Sequence record: OP172792
Length of the DNA stretch: 64,000 nt
Source of the DNA: Escherichia phage ECO340P2
Strand: one strand, 5' to 3'
The notes under the pieces were generated by a model. It was given only the letters and a program-made list of their open reading frames with translations, had not been told where the DNA came from and searched no databases. Below, in pieces: positions 1,893-39,484 of the stretch (position 1 is the stretch's first letter; each line of letters starts with the position of its first letter). A program made the translations under genes and the position numbers.

Positions 1893-1955
1893 TGTGGGCT
1901 TGCTGTATTGCTCGCCCTACGCAATAACTATAAGTTAACAGGAGAAATAAAGCAA
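1893..1955 (-). promoter_or_regulatory. early promoter (TTGCTT-N17-TATAGT) with degenerate leader hairpin
   Basis: promoter-like hexamers and cgtagggcg leader motif. Confidence 0.4.
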
Positions 1956-1956
1956 G

Positions 1957-2190
1957 CTATTTTTTATAAAATTTTTCTGCTGTGATATTCTTCCCAGTAG
2001 GCTTAACCACTTGCAAGATCTTATCATGTGCCGAACGTCCAAAAGAGTAAGATCCGTACACGGTAAACCAATAATCCCCGTTCGGTTGAACGGTTACGGC
2101 GGCGTACGGTGTACCTCTTTCATTATCCCCGATAAAGTGAGAAACATTACCGTTAACATTTGGTTTAGTGCTTTTAATTTGTTCGATCAT
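1957..2190 (-). CDS. hypothetical early protein
   Basis: ORF with TAGGAGT RBS. Confidence 0.55.
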   Translation of the reverse strand: MIEQIKSTKPNVNGNVSHFIGDNERGTPYAAVTVQPNGDYWFTVYGSYSFGRSAHDKILQVVKPTGKNITAEKFYKK

Positions 2191-2208
2191 GATATGACTC
2201 CTAAATCA

Positions 2209-2267
2209 GGCGGGAAACATTCCCGCCCTACGTGATAAATGATAATGTAAGCGTGATCCGGTGTCAA
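2209..2267 (-). promoter_or_regulatory. early promoter + leader hairpin unit (TTGACA-N17-TATCAT; hairpin GGCGGGAAacaTTCCCGCC 2209-2227)
   Basis: read on minus strand; member of repeated module. Confidence 0.6.
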
Positions 2268-2579
2268 TAGGTAGGATTGTAAAGATTTGATAGTTTATCT
2301 CTTTGATGTTTTGTTGTTTGATAGATGTTAGCTATCAATATATAGCGGGGTCGTCCGGTGATTATCTTCCCCTGCTCCCAGGTGCCGCCCGTTCAATAAG
2401 TATAACAAAAAACAGGACAAAAACAAGCCCTGTTTATTTATCTTAAAACCAGTTGCCAACCGTTTCCAATAGGTCACTGACTACCAGGACAACATTAATC
2501 AGCACATATTCAACCAGGAAGGGAATAAGCGCCAGCGTTGCTACTACGATCCCCATTGTGATGATTACCTTTCTCATGG

Positions 2580-2864
2580 TTAGCGGCTTATGTAGGCTTT
2601 ACCGTTTACGGTCATCGGTATGGCTTCAAGGTCGGGATCTTCTTTAAGGTCGCGTGCAAGCTCACCGCACCGGATACCCTCGAAGCCGTGATATTCTGTC
2701 TCGCCATCCTTGAAAGTTTTAGCGGCAAGGCATAGGCGGTAATTAACGCCGATCCGGTTTACTGCGTTAATGTCGGTTAGTGTGATAGATTCCGGCAACT
2801 CTTTAGCCACTACAGGCGCGTTAATACCAACAACCAGGGCAACTACTGCGATCATCTTTTTCAT
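2580..2864 (-). CDS. small secreted protein (signal peptide)
   Basis: N-terminal MKKMIAVVALVVGINAPVVA; RBS GGAAGAGGA. Confidence 0.55.
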   Translation of the reverse strand: MKKMIAVVALVVGINAPVVAKELPESITLTDINAVNRIGVNYRLCLAAKTFKDGETEYHGFEGIRCGELARDLKEDPDLEAIPMTVNGKAYISR

Positions 2865-2896
2865 GCTGTCTATCCTCTTCCTATTGCGTTTAATGG

Positions 2897-2910
2897 GGGC
2901 GTTACCGCCC
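2897..2910 (-). promoter_or_regulatory. leader hairpin GGGCGttacCGCCC (promoter overlaps upstream gene end)
   Basis: hairpin of the repeated family immediately upstream of RBS. Confidence 0.45.
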
Positions 2911-2920
2911 TGCTTATGGT

Positions 2921-3157
2921 TTATTGATTGATGTTATGATGAAAGTTATTTTCTTCAATAGCTTTTAAAATAAAAGCCGTGATCGCTTTCGTGTCTACTT
3001 GTTCGAACGTATCAGAATAACACCAATAATAATCATCCCCTACTTTAGGCGGGTAAACTTGGACAAGGAGATCGCCACCTGGTTGATCTATAAGCTCAAC
3101 ATGCAAGCCGGATGATTCGGCGGTTTTAACGGCGTGTAATACTGTTGCTATACTCAT
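2921..3157 (-). CDS. hypothetical early protein
   Basis: ORF with AAAGGGAAAG RBS. Confidence 0.55.
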   Translation of the reverse strand: MSIATVLHAVKTAESSGLHVELIDQPGGDLLVQVYPPKVGDDYYWCYSDTFEQVDTKAITAFILKAIEENNFHHNINQ

Positions 3158-3177
3158 AATCTTTCCCTTTCTGATGT

Positions 3178-3193
3178 GGGGCGTTGCCGCCCC
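3178..3193 (-). promoter_or_regulatory. leader hairpin GGGGCGttgcCGCCCC
   Basis: hairpin of repeated family. Confidence 0.45.
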
Positions 3194-3201
3194 TTTGTTG
3201 A

Positions 3202-3501
3202 TTAGATCGCTGTTTCCAGTAGTTCGGCTAACGTTTTACCGCCTGATAGTTGGTCTAATGTTTGCTCTTCTGGCAAGAAATTAGCGGACACTAAACCTAC
3301 TTGATCCCCTTTGTGCCAATTAGCCTGGCGGGTGATGCCATCCTTCAAAGATTTTATCGCCATAGTGCAACCATCGCCAAATGATTCATTTTTATGATCC
3401 ATCACTTCATAAGCGCCCAGCTTGCTACTGTTAGGTACCATTAACATAAATACATCACCAACAATCAGTTTTTCTACGGTAATAATAGCGATAGTTTCCA
3501 T
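3202..3501 (-). CDS. hypothetical early protein
   Basis: ORF with GAGGAAAG RBS. Confidence 0.55.
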   Translation of the reverse strand: METIAIITVEKLIVGDVFMLMVPNSSKLGAYEVMDHKNESFGDGCTMAIKSLKDGITRQANWHKGDQVGLVSANFLPEEQTLDQLSGGKTLAELLETAI

Positions 3502-3519
3502 TTTACTTTCCTCATTATC

Positions 3520-3576
3520 GGCGGCACCATTGCCGCCCTACGTGGTAAATATTAGCACACTGGCGATCTGTGTCAA
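3520..3576 (-). promoter_or_regulatory. early promoter + leader hairpin unit (TTGACA-N16-TAATAT; hairpin GGCGGCAccatTGCCGCC 3520-3537)
   Basis: canonical copy of the module. Confidence 0.65.
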
Positions 3577-3582
3577 TACTTT

Positions 3583-3969
3583 TTATTCAATATAAATCAA
3601 ATTATCTTCACCAATGTAAGCCGACACGTTCGGCATAAACTTAGCTGCATTGGTTAGGCGGTTGGCTGTGTTAGTGGTGTATATTTCAGGGCGATCCCAA
3701 AAGCCTACGCCGTGACCGTTACGGGTAAAATGTAAATCATTCCCGATCTGGTTGGCTGTTGCGCCGTCGCTCATTGCCTCAGAGATAGCGGCAAGATTAG
3801 CATTAATAAAGGCTGTTACATCCTGGGCGATCCGTTGATCTGCGCTAGGAGAAAAATCATAATCGTCTAAGTTATCAATAAAATTACCTTCATGATCCCT
3901 TGCTGATTCAGCAAAAATAAAGGCTTCTTTATAGCCGTTGATGATTTCAATAATGATTTCTGTTTTCAT
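3583..3969 (-). CDS. hypothetical early protein
   Basis: ORF; start overlaps stop of upstream gene (translational coupling). Confidence 0.55.
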   Translation of the reverse strand: MKTEIIIEIINGYKEAFIFAESARDHEGNFIDNLDDYDFSPSADQRIAQDVTAFINANLAAISEAMSDGATANQIGNDLHFTRNGHGVGFWDRPEIYTTNTANRLTNAAKFMPNVSAYIGEDNLIYIE

Positions 3970-4181
3970 GCTGTACGCTCGACAATAATAATAGTTTGCG
4001 GGATCTCGTTTTCTACTACTAACAAGGCTTTTTTCTGTGTGATAGATATTTTAACACGTTGTAAAGTAGCGGTAAAATCTTTCATTTCATTATGCGCGGA
4101 TTTAGTACAATGCCAGATCTCAGGCTTACCAACTTGTAAGCCGCGTAAAAATTCCGTTTTGCCTGTTTTGTTCGTGATCAT
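3966..4181 (-). CDS. hypothetical early protein
   Basis: ORF; ATG at 4181 with TAAGGTGA RBS (track uses GTG at 4190). Confidence 0.5.
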   Translation of the reverse strand: MITNKTGKTEFLRGLQVGKPEIWHCTKSAHNEMKDFTATLQRVKISITQKKALLVVENEIPQTIIIVERTA

Positions 4182-4191
4182 TTGTTTCACC

Positions 4192-4296
4192 TTAACCGAT
4201 ACCGTGGGAAGATAGGATCATATTAGCCATAGTTGCAACTACTCCAACCGATAACGCCAGGCCAACCACTGCAACCGTGAAAATTTTCTCTAACAT
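4192..4296 (-). CDS. small hydrophobic membrane peptide (34 aa)
   Basis: track ORF 4192..4395 trimmed; its upstream part runs through the leader hairpin and promoter; hydrophobic sequence. Confidence 0.4.
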   Translation of the reverse strand: MLEKIFTVAVVGLALSVGVVATMANMILSSHGIG

Positions 4297-4314
4297 GATT
4301 CTACCCTCATTAAT

Positions 4315-4377
4315 GGGCGTTGCACCATTGCCCCGCCCTACGTAATACACTTTACTAGATAACAAATTATTGTCAAG
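4315..4377 (-). promoter_or_regulatory. early promoter + irregular leader hairpin unit
   Basis: TGTCAA at 4372-4377 (minus-strand TTGACA); hairpin with enlarged loop containing caccattgcc. Confidence 0.5.
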
Positions 4378-4379
4378 CT

Positions 4380-4517
4380 TTATTTTACTTCCCAAACGGA
4401 AAATTCGCTGCCTGTTGGGATCATTTTTTTAATCTTGTTTGCTGCCGCTACCAGGTCAACGGCTTGTACTGTAATAATATAACCAATTGTCGAGGCTGTT
4501 GCGTTGAAAGTTTTCAT
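4380..4517 (-). CDS. hypothetical small early protein (45 aa)
   Basis: hand-translated ORF below track size cut-off, sits in a gap between genes. Confidence 0.4.
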   Translation of the reverse strand: MKTFNATASTIGYIITVQAVDLVAAANKIKKMIPTGSEFSVWEVK

Positions 4518-4536
4518 TATATTGCCCTTTAATACA

Positions 4537-4554
4537 GGCGGGATTAATCCCGCC
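4537..4554 (-). promoter_or_regulatory. leader hairpin GGCGGGAttaaTCCCGCC
   Basis: perfect palindrome 7 nt after stop of upstream gene. Confidence 0.45.
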
Positions 4555-4561
4555 TTTTTGA

Positions 4562-4732
4562 TTACTCTTCATTATCGCCGTTATAGTATTCAATGCCGTT
4601 TTCATCGGTTACGGTGATGTTAACGCCACCGATAGCAACACGATCACGGGCAAACGTCATAGCTTCATTTAAATCTTCAGACCAAAAAATATTGTGACCT
4701 TTGCGCGATACATAAAACATAGTCGGGATCAT
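4562..4732 (-). CDS. hypothetical small early protein (56 aa)
   Basis: track ORF 4562..4816 trimmed to ATG after leader hairpin. Confidence 0.5.
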   Translation of the reverse strand: MIPTMFYVSRKGHNIFWSEDLNEAMTFARDRVAIGGVNITVTDENGIEYYNGDNEE

Positions 4733-4755
4733 GATTTGTTTCTCTTCTGTTATGA

Positions 4756-4816
4756 GCGGTGGACCATTCCGCCGCCCTATGTGGTAAACTTTACTACGTT
4801 GTTTGCCTGCTGTCAA
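4756..4816 (-). promoter_or_regulatory. early promoter + leader hairpin unit (variant hairpin GGCGGtGGACCAttCCGCCGCC)
   Basis: TGTCAA at 4811-4816; hairpin variant. Confidence 0.5.
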
Positions 4817-4817
4817 A

Positions 4818-5102
4818 CTATTTTTTAATGTTTTGCCCTACAAAATCGATCACTTCCTTAAGCTGTCTCTCTGTCATGATCGTACCTGGTAACTCTTCTT
4901 TAATTTCTTCCGGTAAATAGATATTACCGCGCCAGGTTAACAAACAACCGTTTTGATCTTCGCAGATAGAATAAGAAAACATCCACTCGCAATCATTTTC
5001 AAGCTCCCAAAAACACAAAAAGTCTTCTTTCCCTAAGTTTTCAACGGTTAAACATAATCCGCGACGTGCTGCATAATTAGTTAGGCTTTTTGTGATTTTC
5101 AT
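4818..5102 (-). CDS. hypothetical early protein
   Basis: track ORF trimmed to ATG 5102 with AGAAGAGAGAAAAA RBS. Confidence 0.5.
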   Translation of the reverse strand: MKITKSLTNYAARRGLCLTVENLGKEDFLCFWELENDCEWMFSYSICEDQNGCLLTWRGNIYLPEEIKEELPGTIMTERQLKEVIDFVGQNIKK

Positions 5103-5123
5103 GATTTTTCTCTCTTCTTGTGA

Positions 5124-5179
5124 GCGGCACCATTGCCGCCCTACAAGATACATATTACCAGATTAAGCGGACTTGTCAA
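5124..5179 (-). promoter_or_regulatory. early promoter + leader hairpin unit (hairpin GCGGCAccatTGCCGC)
   Basis: TGTCAA 5174-5179. Confidence 0.6.
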
Positions 5180-5300
5180 ACTATTTTTTCTTTTTCTTTG
5201 CTTTCAATCGTCTAAGGTTACGGCTGGACTTATTGCGCAAGGCGCTTAGATCGTCGTACCCTTTCCATGCTTGCATATCTTTCGGATTCATGTTATCCCC

Positions 5301-5462
5301 TTACTTGTTAGCCGGATCATATACCAGGACCGCGCCGCTTGCTTTCACGCTTTCCGCTTCATAGTTGCGCAGATCGTTTTCTGTAAGATTGAGCGCGATC
5401 ACTTCCTCGATCTCAACGCCAGCGGCAAGGGCGATCTCTTTGATAATATCTGTTGTTTTCAT
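5301..5462 (-). CDS. hypothetical small early protein
   Basis: track ORF trimmed to ATG 5462 with AAGGTG RBS. Confidence 0.45.
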   Translation of the reverse strand: MKTTDIIKEIALAAGVEIEEVIALNLTENDLRNYEAESVKASGAVLVYDPANK

Positions 5463-5472
5463 GGTGTGCACC

Positions 5473-5592
5473 TTATAAGATGATTGATAAGATAGTGACA
5501 ACGAAAGCGATTATACTGATGGCAAATGTCATCTTTTTACCTTCGGATACTGCCGGATTTTCTACCGTGTATTCTACTGTGTACTTGCTCAT
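5473..5592 (-). CDS. small hydrophobic membrane peptide (39 aa)
   Basis: hand-translated ORF below track size cut-off; hydrophobic C-terminal half. Confidence 0.4.
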   Translation of the reverse strand: MSKYTVEYTVENPAVSEGKKMTFAISIIAFVVTILSIIL

Positions 5593-5614
5593 CGTGTAAT
5601 CCTCTCGTTTGCTT

Positions 5615-5677
5615 TGGGAACTATTCCCGCCGCCCTATGAATTAAATATACACTATCTCAAAATGATTGCAAGCCTT
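5615..5677 (-). promoter_or_regulatory. early promoter (TTGCAA-N16-TATATT) + leader hairpin GGGAActaTTCCC
   Basis: read on minus strand. Confidence 0.5.
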
Positions 5678-5690
5678 TTTCTAAATTATT

Positions 5691-5975
5691 TTATTCAGTA
5701 AACAAACCATCATTTACAACGGCGGCGATGATCTCCCGTGCCATTGATTCAGGGAAAGGGGCGCTATAGTCCTGGCTTGTCTCATCGGTATCGGTGATCC
5801 AATGATAAGCTAACGAGTAAAAGCCTTTACTAACTGTTTTCAGTGAGATGATGATCACTCGGTCAAGCTTATTGGTGAATGTTGCCGTTAATGTGTTACC
5901 CTCCTGCGTCATGTTGGACAAGTAAGCGAGATCATTAATCAGGGAAAACATTAGCACGGTGTTAGCTTTACTCAT
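5691..5975 (-). CDS. hypothetical early protein
   Basis: track ORF trimmed to ATG 5975 with GAGGA RBS. Confidence 0.5.
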   Translation of the reverse strand: MSKANTVLMFSLINDLAYLSNMTQEGNTLTATFTNKLDRVIIISLKTVSKGFYSLAYHWITDTDETSQDYSAPFPESMAREIIAAVVNDGLFTE

Positions 5976-6005
5976 GATTGCATCCTCAAAGGGGCGCGGC
6001 ACCAT

Positions 6006-6060
6006 TGCCGCCCTACACGATAACTATAACACAATGTAAAACAGGGTCAACCTTTATTTT
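6006..6060 (-). promoter_or_regulatory. early promoter (TTGACC-N16-TATAGT) + leader hairpin
   Basis: read on minus strand. Confidence 0.55.
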
Positions 6061-6253
6061 TCCACGGTGTCAGCTTGTTAATCATTGGTGATAAATAGCG
6101 TTTACCAACGTAAAACAGTACGCCAACTGATGCAACGGCGGCGACCTCATGCATAGCCGACGGGAAACGGGTATCATAATAAGATCCAATAATAGCAATA
6201 GCGGCAACGGCTGCAACGTCGATAATGATTTTCTCTTGTTTTGCGGTGATCAT
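6047..6253 (-). CDS. small membrane protein
   Basis: hydrophobic segment AAVAAIAIIGSYY; RBS AAAAGG. Confidence 0.5.
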   Translation of the reverse strand: MITAKQEKIIIDVAAVAAIAIIGSYYDTRFPSAMHEVAAVASVGVLFYVGKRYLSPMINKLTPWKNKG

Positions 6254-6275
6254 AGTATTTACCTTTTTGTATGGT

Positions 6276-6332
6276 GGGGAACTATTCCCCGCCTGATGTA
6301 ATACAGTTTAACAGGTCCGGTTATGGTGTCAA
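6276..6332 (-). promoter_or_regulatory. early promoter + leader hairpin unit (GGGGAActaTTCCCC)
   Basis: TGTCAA 6327-6332. Confidence 0.55.
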
Positions 6333-6338
6333 CCACTT

Positions 6339-6524
6339 TTAAAGATATTTTATGCTAATGACGTTTTCAGGTTTTACCTTGTTATGATGTGCATCAACAT
6401 AGATCAAACCATCGTCAGAAAAGCCCAGGATCACGCCCTGCGCGATAAAACCGTACTCGTCACGGTAACGCACGGCTATTTTTAATGTTGCGTTGTAGGC
6501 TGTTTTAAGCTCGTTTAAAGTCAT
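6339..6524 (-). CDS. hypothetical small early protein
   Basis: ORF with GAGGATAAACAAAA RBS. Confidence 0.5.
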   Translation of the reverse strand: MTLNELKTAYNATLKIAVRYRDEYGFIAQGVILGFSDDGLIYVDAHHNKVKPENVISIKYL

Positions 6525-6543
6525 TTTTGTTTATCCTCTACAT

Positions 6544-6571
6544 GTAAAAAGAAAGGGCGCTTGATGCGCCC
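6544..6571 (-). terminator. intrinsic terminator/attenuator (GGGCGCatcaaGCGCCC + TTTCTTTTT) between two co-directional early genes
   Basis: GC stem plus T-run on minus strand. Confidence 0.55.
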
Positions 6572-6579
6572 TTGTTATG

Positions 6580-6726
6580 TTAATCCTCTAAATCCATCCA
6601 ATTATATTTGTCACTCTTCCCGCGCTTTGTTTTATTACGCTTGTCACCTTTGCGGATCACTTCCTCGTTCCAGGCCTTGCGGATCTTGGAAGATTGAATT
6701 TTTTCTGCGCGATTAGATGTATTCAT
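6580..6726 (-). CDS. small basic protein (48 aa)
   Basis: hand-translated ORF; Lys/Arg-rich. Confidence 0.4.
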   Translation of the reverse strand: MNTSNRAEKIQSSKIRKAWNEEVIRKGDKRNKTKRGKSDKYNWMDLED

Positions 6727-6746
6727 TTTGTTTCCTCTTTATATGA

Positions 6747-6799
6747 GCGGCACCATTGCCGCTATATTGTTAATTTAAACTGTTTTGTAAAATTGTCAA
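6747..6799 (-). promoter_or_regulatory. early promoter (TTGACA-N16-TAAATT) + leader hairpin
   Basis: read on minus strand. Confidence 0.6.
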
Positions 6800-6805
6800 G
6801 GTTTA

Positions 6806-7159
6806 TCATTCATAAGAGCAAGCAAGGATCACGCCTGCAATATAAAGCCAATAATTTTCCCTTTCTCGTTGGATTTTATCATCGCTGCTATTCTCTTTAA
6901 TGTATCCCCAGGATGTTAACAGGCGATCAATTTCCCAATATTCGAAAGCGATATTGATATCTGATGGCAAACCTTGTAACCATGATGCAAGTGCTTTAAC
7001 AATACTATAATTAAAACGTGATTGGTTATCAGGGTACCAGTACTCGGAATTAAAACGGCGCATCAATTCCGCGATCTTCTCTTTTTCGGTTGTAATACCA
7101 TAATCATTAAAATCGATAGCGGCAAGGATGTACTCTTTAATTGCATTTTGTGCTTTCAT
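6806..7159 (-). CDS. hypothetical early protein
   Basis: ORF with AAAGAGAGAAAGACC RBS. Confidence 0.55.
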   Translation of the reverse strand: MKAQNAIKEYILAAIDFNDYGITTEKEKIAELMRRFNSEYWYPDNQSRFNYSIVKALASWLQGLPSDINIAFEYWEIDRLLTSWGYIKENSSDDKIQRERENYWLYIAGVILACSYE

Positions 7160-7178
7160 GGTCTTTCTCTCTTTTTGA

Positions 7179-7235
7179 GCGGGAACTATTCCCGCCCTAC
7201 GTGTAACAGTTTACTGAAAATTAAATCCGTGTCAA
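7179..7235 (-). promoter_or_regulatory. early promoter (TTGACA-N16-TAAACT) + leader hairpin GCGGGAActaTTCCCGC
   Basis: read on minus strand. Confidence 0.6.
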
Positions 7236-7238
7236 GCT

Positions 7239-7460
7239 TTATTTTGTTACTACCATTTGGTACCCTGTTTCAATGTTAGTAAATACTGTTATCCCGTCCT
7301 GGCGTTCACTCATTAGCATACAAGGCGCTAACATCCTTTCTACTGCCTTGCACTCATTGTAAACGGCGGTTATGTCTCCTGCGGCCTTGTCTTCTGTGGT
7401 GAATGTATCGTTTACGTAAACCTGACCAGCGACAACGGTGACAATAGCGAAAGTGATCAT
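7239..7460 (-). CDS. hypothetical small early protein
   Basis: ORF; shares RBS and first 5 codons (MITFA) with gene 7535..7702. Confidence 0.5.
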   Translation of the reverse strand: MITFAIVTVVAGQVYVNDTFTTEDKAAGDITAVYNECKAVERMLAPCMLMSERQDGITVFTNIETGYQMVVTK

Positions 7461-7493
7461 GGTGTTTCCTTGTTAGTAGTGGTTTCTCTTCTC

Positions 7494-7532
7494 TATAGCG
7501 CCCATTGTAAGGCGCTATAACGAAAAGTCAAC
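7494..7532 (-). promoter_or_regulatory. promoter TTGACT-N16-TACAAT embedded in a hairpin (TATAGCGCC/GGCGCTATA)
   Basis: -10 lies in the loop of a 9-bp inverted repeat. Confidence 0.45.
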
Positions 7533-7534
7533 GA

Positions 7535-7702
7535 TTATTTTTTAAGGCTTAAAGTACCTAACTTGTCAGCATGACGCAGACCAGGGAAGATCCATTTGCC
7601 TGACTCATCTTTCACCGGGGCTTTAAGCGTAGCGCCCAGGTTGGCGGCGTTAACTTTACGTGCAACGTTGCGAGCGGCTTCACGGGTAGCGAAAGTGATC
7701 AT
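7535..7702 (-). CDS. hypothetical small early protein (55 aa)
   Basis: hand-translated ORF below track size cut-off. Confidence 0.4.
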   Translation of the reverse strand: MITFATREAARNVARKVNAANLGATLKAPVKDESGKWIFPGLRHADKLGTLSLKK

Positions 7703-7726
7703 GGTGTTTTCCTCTTCTCTTTGTTA

Positions 7727-7788
7727 GGCGGTGGACCATTCCGCCGCCTTGATGTAATACAGTTTACTTTATTTTATTAAGATTGCAA
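7727..7788 (-). promoter_or_regulatory. early promoter (TTGCAA) + variant leader hairpin
   Basis: same hairpin variant as 4756-4776. Confidence 0.5.
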
Positions 7789-7794
7789 GCGGTT

Positions 7795-8010
7795 TTATGA
7801 AATAATTGTCAAAGTAAAATCATAAGACTGATTTAATTTATATTGTACTTTATTGCCGTAGTAGTCACCTTTACGTAAAGATCCGCGAATACCTATCACA
7901 TCCTTTACATCTTTAAGACTTTTTACGCCTGTAATGTCTTTATTGAAATACTCGTCATCTGAAAATAAAACTTGACTTGCATTTTTTAACAGTGTGCGGA
8001 TATTAGCCAT
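7795..8010 (-). CDS. hypothetical small early protein
   Basis: track ORF trimmed to ATG 8010. Confidence 0.5.
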   Translation of the reverse strand: MANIRTLLKNASQVLFSDDEYFNKDITGVKSLKDVKDVIGIRGSLRKGDYYGNKVQYKLNQSYDFTLTIIS

Positions 8011-8031
8011 CGTGATAATCTCTCTTCTTGT

Positions 8032-8089
8032 TGGCGGCACCATTGCCGCCCTACGTAATACAGTTTACTCTTTTTCTTTCCAGTGTCAA
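8032..8089 (-). promoter_or_regulatory. early promoter (TTGACA-N16-TAAACT) + leader hairpin GGCGGCAccatTGCCGCC
   Basis: canonical copy. Confidence 0.65.
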
Positions 8090-8098
8090 CAATCTTTT

Positions 8099-8326
8099 TC
8101 AGATTATTTCATCCAGGCATAACAGGCGATCAACGTTGAGATCGGTTAGGCTGATGGTTGGCACCTGGTAGGATTCGATGTACTCAACACTAGCCCATTG
8201 CCCGAAATTAGCGACCGCCCAGCTATTCAAGGAAGATTGCAGATCATCCCCTTTCTTCTCGGTGATAACTGCTACTGTCTGGAAGTTGCCAACGGTGCCG
8301 GATACGCGAACAATAATGATAGCCAT
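8099..8326 (-). CDS. hypothetical small early protein
   Basis: ORF with AGAAGAGAGAAA RBS. Confidence 0.55.
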   Translation of the reverse strand: MAIIIVRVSGTVGNFQTVAVITEKKGDDLQSSLNSWAVANFGQWASVEYIESYQVPTISLTDLNVDRLLCLDEII

Positions 8327-8350
8327 GATGATTTCTCTCTTCTGTTAGGC

Positions 8351-8405
8351 GGGGCGCTTGTCGCCCCTATGTGATACATTTTACACTAATTTAAAACGTT
8401 GTCAA
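8351..8405 (-). promoter_or_regulatory. early promoter + leader hairpin GGGGCGcttgtCGCCCC
   Basis: TGTCAA 8400-8405. Confidence 0.55.
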
Positions 8406-8414
8406 CTGCTTTTA

Positions 8415-8654
8415 TTACATTCCAACCATTGCGGCGCGGATACTGGATTTACTGAACTTGTAACCGTCTGGCGTTTTATCTTGTCCAGTTTGTTCCAGAA
8501 ATAACATCATATGACGGGCTGCATCATTACGATTAGTATTAGCGTCGATAAACTCTTTCGCCAACCGATATAATGACTCATCGTTATTAATCCAAAGGCT
8601 TACATTCCAATGAGTTTTATTTTTGTGACCTAAGAACATTTTTGATTTAGCCAT
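8415..8654 (-). CDS. hypothetical early protein
   Basis: track ORF trimmed to ATG 8654 downstream of leader hairpin. Confidence 0.5.
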   Translation of the reverse strand: MAKSKMFLGHKNKTHWNVSLWINNDESLYRLAKEFIDANTNRNDAARHMMLFLEQTGQDKTPDGYKFSKSSIRAAMVGM

Positions 8655-8688
8655 GATGTTAATCTCTTTTTCAGTGAGGCGGGAACTA

Positions 8689-8747
8689 TTCCCGCTCTCG
8701 ATGTAAAACATTTTACGCTTTTTCTTTCTGTTGTCAATGCTTTTTAT
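8689..8747 (-). promoter_or_regulatory. early promoter + leader hairpin GCGGGAActaTTCCCGC
   Basis: TGTCAA 8742-8747. Confidence 0.55.
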
Positions 8748-9109
8748 AAATCTTTTTTACGTTTAACATCGCTTGCATGACTGTATACAGTGATCCCATT
8801 GTCACGGCAAAAACGGGAAAGATATGTGCCGCGTGAAAACTCCTTGCCTTCAAGGTTGATAACCTTGCTAAATTCTTCCAGGGCGACGGTATCAAAATGA
8901 TCACCATAACCATATTGAAACGGAACGTTAACCACTTGAATCAATTTACCGCCGATCTCAACGTCAACCATTAAAGAAAAATATGTGTTACCGTAGGACT
9001 GTTGAAACCAGCGACGGGCGCTAATATGCACCGCCTCAATGCTGGATAGTTCAATTTTAGCAGTATTAGCCAAGGTAGCATAAGCGGAAACATTGATATT
9101 AATAGCCAT
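8744..9109 (-). CDS. hypothetical early protein
   Basis: ORF with AAAAGG RBS. Confidence 0.55.
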   Translation of the reverse strand: MAININVSAYATLANTAKIELSSIEAVHISARRWFQQSYGNTYFSLMVDVEIGGKLIQVVNVPFQYGYGDHFDTVALEEFSKVINLEGKEFSRGTYLSRFCRDNGITVYSHASDVKRKKDL

Positions 9110-9129
9110 GATGATAACCTTTTATTGTT

Positions 9130-9186
9130 GGCGGCACCATTGCCGCCCTACGTGATAAACTATACCAGAATTTTAAATAGTGTCAA
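9130..9186 (-). promoter_or_regulatory. early promoter + leader hairpin GGCGGCAccatTGCCGCC
   Basis: TGTCAA 9181-9186. Confidence 0.65.
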
Positions 9187-9192
9187 ATGTTT

Positions 9193-9555
9193 TTATTCGT
9201 AAATTTTGCCGCTTTCTACCCATACCGTAACACGGCGCATATTATCCCAAGTGTCTTGATCCAAGTTTAAGCCGTGCAACTCTTCGGTACTTCCCAGACC
9301 AGGTACCGCCTTGTTGTAAGTTGCATATAAGCGCCCTTGATACTCATACGCCAGGGTGAGATCCGTTTGAATCATCTTTTTAAGCATAGCGTTAAGCATC
9401 ATATTAGCGGCATGTTGATCACGTTTTAGCGGTAACATGTCAATAAGGGCGCGATAAGCTGAAATATGAATATCAACCGTTTCACGTGGTAAATTTTTCA
9501 TATCATCGCGGAAAGATACCAGATTAAACATGATAGTATTGATTTGCTTGCTCAT
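9193..9555 (-). CDS. hypothetical early protein
   Basis: ORF with AAAAAGGG RBS. Confidence 0.55.
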   Translation of the reverse strand: MSKQINTIMFNLVSFRDDMKNLPRETVDIHISAYRALIDMLPLKRDQHAANMMLNAMLKKMIQTDLTLAYEYQGRLYATYNKAVPGLGSTEELHGLNLDQDTWDNMRRVTVWVESGKIYE

Positions 9556-9566
9556 TGTGTTACCCT

Positions 9567-9627
9567 TTTTTGTTTTGGCGGGGAAGTATTCCGCCGCCCT
9601 ATGTGATACATCTTATCAGATTAAAAA
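9567..9627 (-). promoter_or_regulatory. early promoter (TTGACA-N16-TAAGAT) + leader hairpin
   Basis: read on minus strand. Confidence 0.6.
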
Positions 9628-9658
9628 ACGTTGTCAAGAATATTTTTAAAAATAATTT

Positions 9659-9940
9659 TTAGCTATATGATCCGCACCGCTCGCAATAGTGATCATCGTC
9701 GTCATCTGCCACCTGGCTGATAAAGTGATCAACCTTCATTTTCAGGTTATTATAATTGTTTTCAACTTCTTTTAATCTTTCTTGGTAGTATTCCAGGGCT
9801 TCAACATATGCCGCCTCAGCCGTTTTTTCACGCATAGCTAAATTCATGCCGCGCGTATCATCGTACAGCCAAAAACCATCAGTGCATTCACTCATTGAAA
9901 GCGTAGGGCTTAACTCTTTATGACTAATTACCTTGCTCAT
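9659..9940 (-). CDS. hypothetical early protein (C-terminal CxxC)
   Basis: track ORF trimmed to ATG 9940. Confidence 0.45.
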   Translation of the reverse strand: MSKVISHKELSPTLSMSECTDGFWLYDDTRGMNLAMREKTAEAAYVEALEYYQERLKEVENNYNNLKMKVDHFISQVADDDDDHYCERCGSYS

Positions 9941-9950
9941 AGTGTGCGCC

Positions 9951-10055
9951 TTATAGAAGGATTGAAATAACAATTGCTACAGTGATCCACACTGGAACGG
10001 CTAGAATGATAGCGTTAATCGTTCCAACCGTCAAGCTATTTTCTTTATTAATCAT
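9951..10055 (-). CDS. small hydrophobic membrane peptide (34 aa)
   Basis: hand-translated ORF directly after leader hairpin. Confidence 0.4.
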   Translation of the reverse strand: MINKENSLTVGTINAIILAVPVWITVAIVISILL

Positions 10056-10084
10056 TGTAAACCTTTTATATAATTTCACTATGA

Positions 10085-10141
10085 GCGGCACCATTGCCGC
10101 CCTACGTGGTAAATATTATGCTAGTGGCGGCGATATGTCAA
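10085..10141 (-). promoter_or_regulatory. early promoter (TTGACA-N17-TAATAT) + leader hairpin
   Basis: read on minus strand. Confidence 0.6.
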
Positions 10142-10695
10142 AGGCTATTTTCAAAGTTTTCTAGCGCGATCCTTTTTTCTTCCTCTGTCGGCTGATAATC
10201 AGGAAAAGCATCAATACACAACAACGGCGGGATCTCTTCGTACTCTTCCTCTTCCGTTGTCTCCTCGTCTTCCTCCTGGGCTATGGCTGCAATTTTGGCT
10301 AATTTTCTTTCAGCTTGAATCAGTTTACCATCAAGTACATTTTTTGCCATGTTGTAAGCGGTCCAGGTGATGCGCTTATTTTCCAGGGCTTCATCAAGCG
10401 CCGCTATCTTGCTGGGATATTCATCAAGGACACGAAAAGCCGGATCAACCTTGTACAAAGGATTATCTTTCGCGCCGTCGCTAGGATCTTCCGCACTGGA
10501 TAAATCAGCGTTACCATTTGCCAGCCAACCAGGGCGCACATGACGCGCTTTTACGTTGCCGTTACTACGTGCTAACCTGTTACCTATTTGCTCACCACTA
10601 TAGCCCGTTGATTCATCGACAAGATGATCGGGAATGATGCGCGGATCATCTGCCTCATGCTTTACCCAAGACTGGATCACATATTCACGCCCCAT
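10138..10695 (-). CDS. hypothetical early protein with acidic stretch
   Basis: ORF; ATG 10695 with AAGGTGG RBS; EEDEETTEEEEYEE run. Confidence 0.55.
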   Translation of the reverse strand: MGREYVIQSWVKHEADDPRIIPDHLVDESTGYSGEQIGNRLARSNGNVKARHVRPGWLANGNADLSSAEDPSDGAKDNPLYKVDPAFRVLDEYPSKIAALDEALENKRITWTAYNMAKNVLDGKLIQAERKLAKIAAIAQEEDEETTEEEEYEEIPPLLCIDAFPDYQPTEEEKRIALENFENSL

Positions 10696-10696
10696 A

Positions 10697-10954
10697 TTAA
10701 CCACCTTTTTTCAACAATTGACATACTTTAAAAAGACTTGCGGAATCCTTGCAAGGGTAGAAAGATGTACGATAGTCACGTACGCCAACCTTGCGGATCT
10801 CGATGTTCTCGCATGTTGTTTGATCAAAGATATTTATTTCATCACGCCCCCTTATATAAACATAGTGAGGATGGATCAAAGCATACTTAGCTAATCTGTA
10901 AAAAGCGTTATCTTTGAACGCGATCACGTGACCTTTTAACTTGATGTAAAACAT
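10697..10954 (-). CDS. hypothetical early protein
   Basis: ORF with TAAGGTGA RBS. Confidence 0.55.
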   Translation of the reverse strand: MFYIKLKGHVIAFKDNAFYRLAKYALIHPHYVYIRGRDEINIFDQTTCENIEIRKVGVRDYRTSFYPCKDSASLFKVCQLLKKGG

Positions 10955-10978
10955 TTTGTCACCTTACAAATAGCGGGA

Positions 10979-11034
10979 ACTATTCCCGCCTTATGCAACA
11001 TATTAGTAAATTATTCGCTAATGTCAAGCCTTAA
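10979..11034 (-). promoter_or_regulatory. early promoter + leader hairpin GCGGGAActaTTCCCGC
   Basis: TGTCAA 11029-11034. Confidence 0.55.
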
Positions 11035-11303
11035 AGCAAAAATGCTACATCTTGCGCTTTTAGTGTAGTGTCAACCATTTTCGGGCTTTTATAATCAACA
11101 AACCGCGCGGTTTTTTCAATAGCGAAACCTAAATAATCTTGCTTGTTGAAATTACATTCTTTCTTAAATGTTTCCCGCGCCACGGCGATCGCTGCGTCCA
11201 GGGATAAACGACCATCAATATTAATATTAGCGAAAGATCCGCCACCGCTCATAGGTTTACCAGTGGTGCCAGTTACAATCATTGTTGCGCTATATGATGC
11301 CAT
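11031..11303 (-). CDS. hypothetical early protein
   Basis: ORF with AGAAGAGAGAAAAA RBS. Confidence 0.55.
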   Translation of the reverse strand: MASYSATMIVTGTTGKPMSGGGSFANINIDGRLSLDAAIAVARETFKKECNFNKQDYLGFAIEKTARFVDYKSPKMVDTTLKAQDVAFLL

Positions 11304-11326
11304 GATTTTTCTCTCTTCTGTTAGGC

Positions 11327-11382
11327 GGGGCGCTTGTCGCCCCTATGTGATACATCTTATCAGGTTGTTGCCTGTTGTCAAT
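11327..11382 (-). promoter_or_regulatory. early promoter + leader hairpin GGGGCGcttgtCGCCCC
   Basis: TGTCAA 11377-11382. Confidence 0.55.
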
Positions 11383-11387
11383 ACTTT

Positions 11388-11585
11388 TTATTCAAGCCCT
11401 ACGATATGCAAAACACGGCGATCAGCAATAGCGTGCTGGTCTTCTGTTATAACGCACATTTCTACCAGTGAATCAAGAAAGGAAAGCACAGTAATATATT
11501 CGTCATCGGGTACACTCATTTCATTAGTACCGTTTACCATTACGTTGATTTGTCCTGCTTTCGCTACAATGTGCAATGTTGCCAT
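11388..11585 (-). CDS. hypothetical small early protein
   Basis: ORF with GGAG RBS. Confidence 0.5.
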   Translation of the reverse strand: MATLHIVAKAGQINVMVNGTNEMSVPDDEYITVLSFLDSLVEMCVITEDQHAIADRRVLHIVGLE

Positions 11586-12151: not shown

Positions 12152-12378
12152 GCTTTACATACAGAAGAGGAAGCGCCACCCCACGGCGTAAAGGCGGGGC
12201 TAACATACCAGGGCGCTGGTTGGAAGGTTGATCGCCGGGAGGCTGGACGCTATACATTTGTAAAGAAATGTAAAGACTAAAATAATTGCTTGCTTTCCAG
12301 GGTAGATCTGTTATTCTTATTACATGGCGAGGGGACACGGGAGCGCGAGACAAACACCACTCCTGCGCGTCATTCCCT

Positions 12379-12541
12379 AAATGAGAATGATTATCATTTA
12401 CCTTCTTAAATAAGAATCAATCTCATTTGAGTAGTTGAATGAGAATCATTCCTATTCGCAAAGTGAGAATAAGTCTCATTTACAACATTAAATGCGAATC
12501 AATCTCATTTGCATTTACATATGAGAATTGTTCTCATTCTC
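12379..12541. repeat. six palindromic iteron/operator-like sites (approx. AAATGAGAAT-N3-5-TCTCATTT)
   Basis: sites at about 12379, 12409, 12437, 12460, 12488, 12519; the last (ATGAGAAttgTTCTCAT) is a perfect palindrome. Confidence 0.6.
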
Positions 12542-12560
12542 ACCTGCATAAAAATTTTTG

Positions 12561-12600
12561 TAAACTTTAAATTTTGCTTTTGTACTTTCATTTTTGTAAA
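12561..12600. repeat. AT-rich 40-bp direct repeat, copy 1
   Basis: about 35/40 identity with 12700-12739. Confidence 0.55.
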
Positions 12601-12699
12601 AGCAAAAAAACTTTAAATACTGTGGGCGCGCAAAATTTTTAAAATTTTCCTTGACTTTTAAGTCTTATTCTTGTATGTAACATTTTAAGATAATTTTCC

Positions 12700-12739
12700 T
12701 AAACTTTAAATTTTGGTTTTCAACTTTCACTTTTGTAAA
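12700..12739. repeat. AT-rich 40-bp direct repeat, copy 2
   Basis: about 35/40 identity with 12561-12600. Confidence 0.55.
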
Positions 12740-12888
12740 TTCTTAAAAAGTTTAAATAATTTGAGGAATTTTTGAGATAACAGATAGTGAGAATTTGAGA
12801 TAACCTTTAATCTTGTTGGTAAACCTTCAGGAACCCATCTAGATCAAATCCTAGCGATGCAAACTGAAAAGATAAGTGTTCGTATAGG

Positions 12889-18966: not shown

Positions 18967-18994
18967 TTGACATGCTTTTTAGTCCTGTTAAGAT
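18967..18994 (+). promoter_or_regulatory. rightward promoter TTGACA-N16-TAAGAT
   Basis: hexamers read directly; 30 nt upstream of gene at 19025. Confidence 0.6.
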
Positions 18995-33300: not shown

Positions 33301-33525
33301 ATGATGAAAGTAGCTGTAGTAGAAACGGATACAGACTATCATGGAGCTTATGTTGACACCAAGATAATGGAATTCCCTTCTATGTTGGAGGCTGAAACCT
33401 GGTGTGATACAAGGTCTAGTAAAGGAAGTGCTTATTTTATCGACAAAAGCTTAACCAAAGCTTTGAACGAAGAGGAAAAGCCTAAGAAAGAGCCAGAAAA
33501 TAATATCAGCTTATCTTGGTATTAA
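33301..33525 (+). CDS. hypothetical protein
   Basis: ORF with GGAGGG RBS. Confidence 0.5.
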   Translation: MMKVAVVETDTDYHGAYVDTKIMEFPSMLEAETWCDTRSSKGSAYFIDKSLTKALNEEEKPKKEPENNISLSWY

Positions 33526-33528
33526 CTG

Positions 33529-33587
33529 TTGACAAGCTTTTTAAAAAGAGTAAGATATATCACATGAAGCGGGGAATAGTTCCCCGC
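33529..33587 (+). promoter_or_regulatory. promoter TTGACA-N16-TAAGAT + leader hairpin GCGGGGAAtagTTCCCCGC (same module as early genes, plus strand)
   Basis: hexamers and hairpin read directly; 18 nt upstream of terC RBS. Confidence 0.6.
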
Positions 33588-33604
33588 AAAGAGAGGAGAA
33601 AAGA

Positions 33605-39219: not shown

Positions 39220-39484
39220 ATTCAATATTCAAGAAGAAAAGTATAAGGATTTACCTGTTCCTTTCGAAGATCTTGACGTAGGGGATACATTCATGTATTA
39301 TGCTGCCTATGAAGATGCAGGGTTGGATACTTACATTAATTTGGTGTTCATTAAAAGTTCTCCAAACAGCGCAATCTGCATCAGTGGATCGCAACGAGGT
39401 TATACACATTGTATCCCGCCAGATACAAATATGGTGGAAGTAGATTTAGAAGTTACCAATATCACACTTAAGAAGGAGAAATAA
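39194..39484 (+). CDS. hypothetical protein, paralog of 40506..40775
   Basis: shared DLDVGDTF motif and C-terminal ..VT(N/G)ITLK. Confidence 0.55.
   Translation: MVEEVCVFRFNIQEEKYKDLPVPFEDLDVGDTFMYYAAYEDAGLDTYINLVFIKSSPNSAICISGSQRGYTHCIPPDTNMVEVDLEVTNITLKKEK

Follow-up and report, generated by a model that had tools for sequence, protein, structure and literature searches.

Repeated promoter-hairpin modules resembling promoter-early stem-loop cassettes in Escherichia phage ECO340P2

Modules in a cluster of small leftward genes

The region between positions 2209 and 11382 of a 64,000-nucleotide stretch of Escherichia phage ECO340P2 (sequence record OP172792; the whole stretch is referred to here as the window) carries about 30 genes, all of them small, leftward and annotated as hypothetical, and most of them without a terminator between them. 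The 20 cluster proteins that were tested could all be assigned only to PHROG families without a known function. The intergenic spaces of this ORFan cluster contain a repeated unit composed of a promoter, a short leader and a GC-rich hairpin, which usually precedes a single small ORFan gene and occasionally two to four. The initial annotation had reported this unit from the letters alone, and both a covariance model and a promoter scan bear the observation out. The region is 93 to 96% identical over 96% of its length to such Phapecoctavirus phages as vB_EcoM-P3322, Mt1B1_P17, tuntematon, and ESCO13, matches phi92-like phages in a patchy manner, and matches rV5-like phages in shorter patches. 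By its sequence, the window can be placed in Phapecoctavirus, at about 95% identity to vB_EcoM-P3322 and tuntematon.

A covariance model of the leader and hairpin, run over the 64-kb window with filters off, retrieved exactly 21 copies (26 to 44 bits, E values of 6e-9 to 2e-4), with the next match at an E value of 0.27. Twenty of these copies are on the minus strand, with model matches between 1894 and 11353, and one is on the plus strand, at 33557 to 33590. They are listed below, each named by the start of its -35 element, together with one variant promoter and three GC hairpins without a promoter.

11318 to 11396, minus strand: module 11381; A-tract, TTGACA-16-TAAGAT, leader GTATCACATAG, hairpin GGGGCG/CGCCCC
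10969 to 11042, minus strand: module 11027; hairpin GGCGGGAA/TTCCCGCT
10080 to 10156, minus strand: module 10141; hairpin GGGCGGCA/TGCCGCTC
9575 to 9652, minus strand: module 9637; hairpin GGCGG(C)GGAA/TTCCCCGCC
9126 to 9201, minus strand: module 9186; hairpin GGCGGCA/TGCCGCC
8675 to 8752, minus strand: module 8737; hairpin GCGGGAA/TTCCCGC
8344 to 8420, minus strand: module 8405; hairpin GGGGCG/CGCCCC
8029 to 8104, minus strand: module 8089; hairpin GGCGGCA/TGCCGCC
7725 to 7803, minus strand: module 7788; -35 TTGCAA, hairpin GGCGG(C)GGA/TCC(A)CCGCC
7490 to 7546, minus strand: variant promoter 7531; TTGACT-16-TACAAT, hairpin TATAGCGCC/GGCGCTATA over the -10 element, the classic placement in promoter-early stem-loops (PeSLs)
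7175 to 7250, minus strand: module 7235; hairpin GGGCGGGAA/TTCCCGCTC
6742 to 6814, minus strand: module 6799; hairpin AGCGGCA/TGCCGCT
6271 to 6347, minus strand: module 6332; hairpin GGGGAA/TTCCCC
5991 to 6065, minus strand: module 6050; -35 TTGACC, hairpin GCGGCA/TGCCGC with a weak z-score
5610 to 5687, minus strand: module 5672; -35 TTGCAA, degenerate hairpin GGGAA/TTCCC
5119 to 5194, minus strand: module 5179; hairpin GGGCGGCA/TGCCGCTC, lengthened by pairing of the leader
4753 to 4831, minus strand: module 4816; hairpin GGGCGG(C)GGA/TCC(A)CCGCTC
4314 to 4391, minus strand: module 4376; hairpin GGGCG..GCA/TGC..CGCCC, chimeric with respect to phage Schickermooser
3516 to 3591, minus strand: module 3576; hairpin GGCGGCA/TGCCGCC, exact chimera of two Schickermooser modules
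2206 to 2282, minus strand: module 2267; hairpin GGGCGGGAA/TTCCCGCCT
1894 to 1970, minus strand: module 1955; -35 TTGCTT, weak hairpin, outside the region 2209 to 11382
33514 to 33590, plus strand: module 33529; hairpin GCGGGGAA/TTCCCCGC, preceding a gene for a TerC-like membrane protein
4536 to 4555, minus strand: GC hairpin without a promoter, about 22 nucleotides (nt) before a start codon
3178 to 3193, minus strand: GC hairpin without a promoter, preceding a ribosome-binding site (RBS)
2896 to 2911, minus strand: GC hairpin without a promoter, preceding an RBS

The region 2209 to 11382 therefore holds 19 hairpin modules on the minus strand, the variant at 7531 and the three promoterless hairpins, a census that replaces the earlier estimate of about 22 copies; one further module lies to the left of the region (1955) and one far to the right (33529). 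The statement that nearly every gene has its own promoter was too broad, as the 20 promoters serve about 30 genes, so that roughly two thirds have one.

The reading of the minus strand and the promoter scan give the order of the unit as A-rich tract, -35 element, spacer, -10 element, leader, GC hairpin, purine-rich RBS, and ATG. The -35 element is an exact TTGACA in 17 of the 21 copies, the others having TTGCAA (7788 and 5672), TTGACC (6050), and TTGCTT (1955), whereas the spacer of 16 to 17 nt and the TAnnnT -10 element are present in all copies. These promoters, whose elements the initial annotation had given, are near the sigma-70 consensus, and several have a TG-extended -10 element. The A-rich tract, at -41 to -46 (information of 1.0 to 1.5 bits), contains the TAA stop codon of the upstream gene. 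The leader is approximately TATCACRTAGGG, with the fuller form (G/T)TATCAC(G/A)TAGGG. Its core YACRTAGGG is found 11 times, where chance predicts 1.1, and the composite pattern TTGACA-N16-TANNNT-N8-TAG occurs 9 times against 0 expected. The stem is 6 to 10 bp long and begins 9 to 12 nt past the -10 element in 16 of the 21 copies, and the start codon follows 12 to 27 nt downstream of the hairpin. On this evidence, the units can be described as strong host sigma-70 promoters with a UP-like A-rich tract and with a hairpin that is predicted to be transcribed after the -10 element. Other good sigma-70 promoters of the window, for example those on the plus strand at 18967, 20325, 21364, 40437, and 47962, are without the hairpin.

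The mechanical list of open reading frames (ORFs) starts two ORFs, at 10094 and 6005 on the minus strand, from an ATG within the hairpin loop (AATGG). By our reading of this strand, the true starts probably lie about 30 to 40 nt downstream, past the RBS, and automatic annotation of genes with a loop ATG may run too long at the 5' end.

The plus-strand module is complete, including the leader, and is located inside a long rightward operon, far from the cluster, with a counterpart in tuntematon at 39295 to 39328. This suggests that a module can travel with an individual gene or be inserted beside it. The promoterless hairpins at 4536 to 4555, 3178 to 3193, and 2896 to 2911 are located between leftward genes and have a T-run on the plus strand, and they look like terminators of antisense transcription and not of transcription in the direction of the genes.

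Constraint on the leader and stem

In 18 of 20 copies, folding gave energies of -11 to -16.7 kcal/mol with z-scores between -2.2 and -5.3; the two others, at 6050 and 5672, have degenerate hairpins. The RBS is predicted to be unpaired beside the stable hairpins. A search of the whole window with the Rfam covariance models gave no match at the gathering score.

The arms of the hairpins differ among copies and yet remain complementary, as reported initially. They fall into several families that are related by paired changes, namely, GGCGGCA/TGCCGCC, GGCGGGAA/TTCCCGCC, GGCGGGAAA/TTTCCCGCC, GGGGCG/CGCCCC, and GGCGG(C)GGA/TCC(A)CCGCC. The covariation check that had been proposed for the aligned copies was performed with 117 copies, 65 of them distinct, which came from the window and from six relatives and were aligned by fitting to the model. 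It gave a score of 0.208 against 0.110 for shuffled alignments, a value reached in 0 of 500 shuffles, although this result has limited weight because the variable stem length puts the register off, so that 77% of the cells are paired and the signal comes mainly from one pair. The evidence for compensatory changes thus rests on the listing of families hairpin by hairpin rather than on the fitted alignment.

Among the copies within the window, mean pairwise identity is 0.88 for the -35 element, 0.72 for the -10 element, 0.54 for the leader, and 0.33 for the spacer. Such a low identity of the spacer indicates that the copies are not recent duplicates of the whole unit. Between orthologous modules of the window and the six relatives, the differences amount to 7.6% in the spacer, 6.3% in the loop, 3.3% in the stem, 2.4% in the leader, 2.7% in the -10 element, and 1.1% in the -35 element. 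Stem and leader both differ from the spacer (P = 5.5e-6 and P = 2.8e-5, respectively, values that are optimistic because the relatives are not independent samples), whereas the loop does not differ significantly from it. The stems and the leader, which change two to three times more slowly than the spacer, are thus constrained and the loops unconstrained, in agreement with the selection on structure that had been proposed from the complementary arms.

Distribution of the modules and recombination between them

The complete genome of tuntematon (150 kb) contains 23 copies, of which 22 form one 10.6-kb cluster (6.8 to 17.4 kb) and one precedes the TerC-like gene. No copy was found in the other approximately 130 kb of this genome, even though it has further blocks of small genes, which are tightly packed without intergenic spaces. 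The modules of the window are likewise confined to one ORFan cluster, apart from the single plus-strand copy at 33.5 kb. The Justusliebigvirus phages phi92 and Eryne have the same module design with other flavors of hairpin. In the Vequintavirus rV5, a GC hairpin lies exactly 10 nt past the -10 element of about half of the early promoters, with a leader that differs. A blastn search with one module retrieved 149 phage records, which all appear to belong to this supergroup; no T4-like phage was among the matches listed, and no match was found in 5,426 E. coli genomes. A pattern scan of IMG/VR (promoter, 11 nt, and GGCGG..CCGCC) returned 20 stretches. Those that fit the leader model are all located on four large contigs (approximately 97 to 153 kb) that appear to be relatives, and the 13 others are unrelated single instances, near chance level by a rough estimate.

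In the collinear comparison with the six relatives, insertions, deletions, and replacements the size of genes make the cluster a mosaic. The first part of module 3576, up to ...GGTGCCGC, is identical to one Schickermooser module, and the remainder is identical to the next Schickermooser module. The two parental modules flank a gene for a protein of 63 amino acids that the window does not have, and the crossover lies inside the leader-hairpin, within the shared 22-nt sequence CGTAGGGCGGCAATGGTGCCGC. Module 4376 is a similar chimera with respect to Schickermooser, where the switch is at the -35 element and spacer. When unique ends of homology blocks were counted, modules contained 9 of the 18 ends for the close relatives (P = 0.009) and 17 of the 23 ends for the distant relatives (P = 2e-7), while the modules cover 22% of the region. 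As read from the sequences, it is the chimeras that are the direct evidence for recombination at the modules. The junctions of gene gain and loss lie inside modules, and the repeat of about 95 nt is therefore the substrate of homologous recombination that shuffles the cassettes. The initial annotation had reported neither this behavior as recombination points nor the fit to the PeSL concept that is described in the next section.

The flanks of the cluster present repeats of other kinds. Positions 1 to 900 of the window, past the end of the early cluster and on the same side as the 343-bp terminal repeat of phi92, are AT-rich and without convincing genes, and contain long imperfect inverted repeats with arms at 227 to 250/349 to 372 and 142 to 164/435 to 457. 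On the other side, a noncoding gap at 12372 to 12540 contains about six to eight copies of a palindromic motif of approximately 20 nt, AAATGAGAAT-N3-ATTCTCATTT, spaced by 24 to 29 nt. This array resembles an iteron or operator array and may mark an origin or a site to which a regulator binds; the corresponding gap of tuntematon has features labeled just "repeat_region". Two AT-rich direct repeats of 72 nt that are 82% identical follow at 12553 to 12763, with several promoter-like TTTACA...CAAAAT sites on the minus strand.

Relation to PeSLs and role of the hairpin

PeSLs are known from the T4-like phages RB49/phi1, PST/T4, and nt-1/KVP40, where they are found in hyperplastic, ORFan-rich parts of the genome and bring about the shuffling of modules (Arbiol et al. 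2010, PMC2839356; Comeau et al. 2014, PMC4122927). The modules described here share their architecture. In both, an intergenic repeat of about 100 nt combines an AT-rich tract, which includes the stop codon of the upstream gene, with a near-consensus sigma-70 promoter, a stem-loop of G-run and C-run arms, a Shine-Dalgarno sequence, and a start codon. Both cluster among the small ORFans of a plastic region, and in both systems the gene insertions and deletions between close relatives have their junctions in the repeats. The lineage is different, being Stephanstirmvirinae/Vequintavirinae here, and blastn gives no sequence homology, so that the resemblance is an analogy or very old. Because no T4-like match was listed, the modules are assigned to the PeSL type by architecture and behavior and not by descent. 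PeSL-type cassettes have been described so far only in T4-like phages.

The placement of the hairpin sets the modules apart. In RB49, the stem-loop usually overlaps the -35 and -10 elements or lies between them, and in PST it is upstream of the promoter, whereas the hairpin here is fixed 9 to 12 nt past the -10 element, within the predicted transcript, which is the rarest of the five published placements. Only the variant at 7531, with its hairpin over the -10 element, has the common one. The conserved leader before the hairpin and the lack of a U-tract after it are further differences. Terminator or attenuator activity and mini-circles from recombination of neighboring repeats are further traits ascribed to the T4-like PeSLs.

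Taken together, the modules are probably PeSL-type early-gene cassettes in which the hairpin has become fixed in the transcribed leader and acts as a boundary at the RNA level. This is a joint judgment, with high confidence in the cassette or PeSL-like nature and moderate confidence in the mechanism of the hairpin. Each unit would be a self-contained cassette for the expression of an early gene from a strong host sigma-70 promoter. The short conserved leader would hold the start of transcription, the stable GC hairpin would follow within a few nucleotides of this start, and the RBS would be left unstructured. The hairpin would thus be located close to the 5' end of the mRNA that it belongs to. 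As most genes have no terminator between them, it would also lie at the 3' end of RNA from the upstream cassette, whether this RNA arises by read-through or by processing. In this position it could stop 3' exonucleases and give the 5' end partial protection, and each small gene would be expressed and would decay as an insulated unit. The preferred reading is hence that the hairpin marks or protects mRNA ends. That the promoterless hairpins have similar distances from the start codons suggests an RNA role that is independent of initiation.

The initial annotation had suggested a 5'-terminal hairpin that stabilizes each mRNA. The hairpin is predicted to lie near the 5' end, with a single-stranded 5' overhang of median 3 to 5 nt if transcription starts 6 to 8 nt past the -10 element. 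The 5'-terminal stem-loop stabilizers of E. coli (ompA type) similarly combine a stable hairpin near the mRNA 5' end with an open ribosome site, but they have the hairpin within about 0 to 4 unpaired nt of the end, and the overhang predicted here is at or beyond this tolerance. Moreover, scanning RNase E passes simple stem-loops with ease (PMC9943677). For these two reasons, a role purely as a 5'-end stabilizer is doubtful.

Several points weigh against the reading of the hairpin as an RNA boundary in PeSL-type cassettes, besides the optimism of the P values noted above. Given the overhang and the bypass by RNase E, protection of the 5' end may be weak. Non-Watson-Crick positions are G.U in 7 cases and C.A in 9, which is equivocal for pairing of the sense-strand RNA, and the palindrome may have a role at the DNA level. 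The complementarity of the arms could come from palindrome-templated repair instead of selection. As the modules fill the intergenic spaces, the enrichment of block ends in them is partly expected from selection for intact genes alone. The literature search retrieved no transcript maps for rV5-like, phAPEC8-like, or phi92-like phages.

An alternative that we regard as unlikely is that the hairpin is an attenuator or terminator of transcription from the upstream cassette, as proposed for the T4-like PeSLs, so that the own promoter alone drives each gene. In RB49, one PeSL stem-loop, when inserted downstream of a promoter and ahead of lacZ, lowered expression to the same extent as rrnB T1 did (PMC2839356), and the hairpins described here are GC-rich, stable, and located between nearly all cassettes. 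None of them, however, is followed by a U-tract (mean of 1.1 T and maximum of 4 in the 8 nt past the stem), as the initial annotation had noted in arguing that they are not terminators, and a scan for intrinsic terminators reported no module hairpin on the minus strand. True T-run terminators exist in the cluster for comparison, at 6573 to 6553 and 942 to 920. The hairpin also lies downstream of its own transcription start, where an efficient terminator would abort its own transcript. The lack of a U-tract and the position inside the own transcript make a canonical terminator, and an efficient terminator role in general, unlikely from the sequence.

It is similarly improbable that the leader and hairpin form the site of a phage or host protein (a nuclease, a translational repressor, or a DNA-binding shut-off factor) that coregulates the early cassettes. 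This is the regulator recognition site of the initial annotation. In its favor, the leader TATCACRTAGGG shows 2.4% of differences against 7.6% in the spacer, more conservation than a start site needs. The motif is also limited to one temporal or functional gene cluster and missing from the other sigma-70 promoters of the window. Against it, the loops evolve as fast as the spacer and several families of stem and loop coexist in one genome, which together disfavor a single protein that reads the loop by its sequence. In addition, rV5 keeps the position of the hairpin but not the leader sequence, and no candidate binding protein was identified.

A bolder version of an RNA function, to which we give a lower probability than to the two preceding alternatives, is that the fixed leader hairpin is a dedicated RNA signal of the entire lineage of rV5-like phages, which marks early ORFan transcripts for a fate controlled by the phage. 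Such a signal could, for example, confer protection during phage-accelerated decay of host mRNA, or else coordinated destruction or translational shut-off at the early-to-middle switch. It would constitute a new posttranscriptional regulon and explain the restriction of the modules to one gene cluster.

Quite improbable is a hairpin without any role in expression that serves as a recombination or mobility signal at the DNA level (a cruciform or single-strand hairpin, as in REP or attC elements) and spreads the cassettes. The crossover of module 3576 inside the leader-hairpin and the G.U asymmetry test, which did not favor the RNA strand, are compatible with it, but the second crossover, that of module 4376, is in the promoter, as plain homologous recombination predicts, and the set distances to the -10 element and RBS would be unexplained. 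A further point in its favor is the layout of the repetitive extragenic palindromic (REP) sequences and bacterial interspersed mosaic elements (BIMEs), which are also intergenic and in which a GTAG-like tetranucleotide precedes an imperfect palindrome rich in GC; REPs of E. coli can be barriers to 3' exonucleases. Compared with REPs, the element described here has far shorter stems and is invariably linked with a promoter and RBS, and its sequence has no match in the E. coli genomes searched. No recombinase or gene of the HUH/RAYT type was found: neither the "transposase-like" gene of tuntematon nor its neighbor annotated as an HNH endonuclease has a Pfam match. Given the lack of E. coli and Pfam matches, a REP/RAYT transposable unit was demoted to this minor alternative. 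An RNase III site was rejected because stems of 6 to 10 bp are too short, and nothing observed here pointed to antitermination of the lambda nut or Q type, although no search for such genes was made.

The last alternative is found in the GenBank record of phAPEC8 (JX561091), where the sigma-70 part is labeled "host dependent promoter (MEME)" and the 20-mer GTAGGGCGGCAATGGTGCCG directly after it is labeled "putative promoter determined with PHIRE" (features at 556 to 575, 937 to 956, 1787 to 1806, and 3202 to 3221). That this repeat is a phage-specific promoter is hardly credible, since PHIRE merely reports overrepresented 20-mers, the repeat is always 4 to 12 nt past a near-consensus sigma-70 promoter and 12 to 27 nt before a start codon, its variable parts keep complementarity rather than sequence, and the tuntematon annotation, as far as inspected, has no phage RNA polymerase gene. 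The label is probably a misannotation of what is here the transcribed leader and hairpin past the sigma-70 promoter. The repeat was thus already noticed in 2012 but was taken for a promoter and not for a transcribed hairpin. No description of the modules as a promoter/stem-loop cassette was found in the literature searched, which did not include the phAPEC8 genome announcement.

The assignment of the modules to PeSL-type cassettes with a transcribed boundary hairpin would correct the database annotation of the hairpin as a phage promoter. The approximately 20 matched cassettes would form a natural series for the effect of a promoter-proximal hairpin on the fate of mRNA. Genome engineering could use the modules as natural points for cutting and pasting and as expression units that come already insulated. 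The ORFans that they drive are candidates for functions in host takeover or antidefense. The PeSL idea of portable cassettes that both express and shuffle small accessory genes would thereby extend to unrelated, therapeutically used coliphages, namely, those that are phAPEC8-like, phi92-like, and rV5-like.

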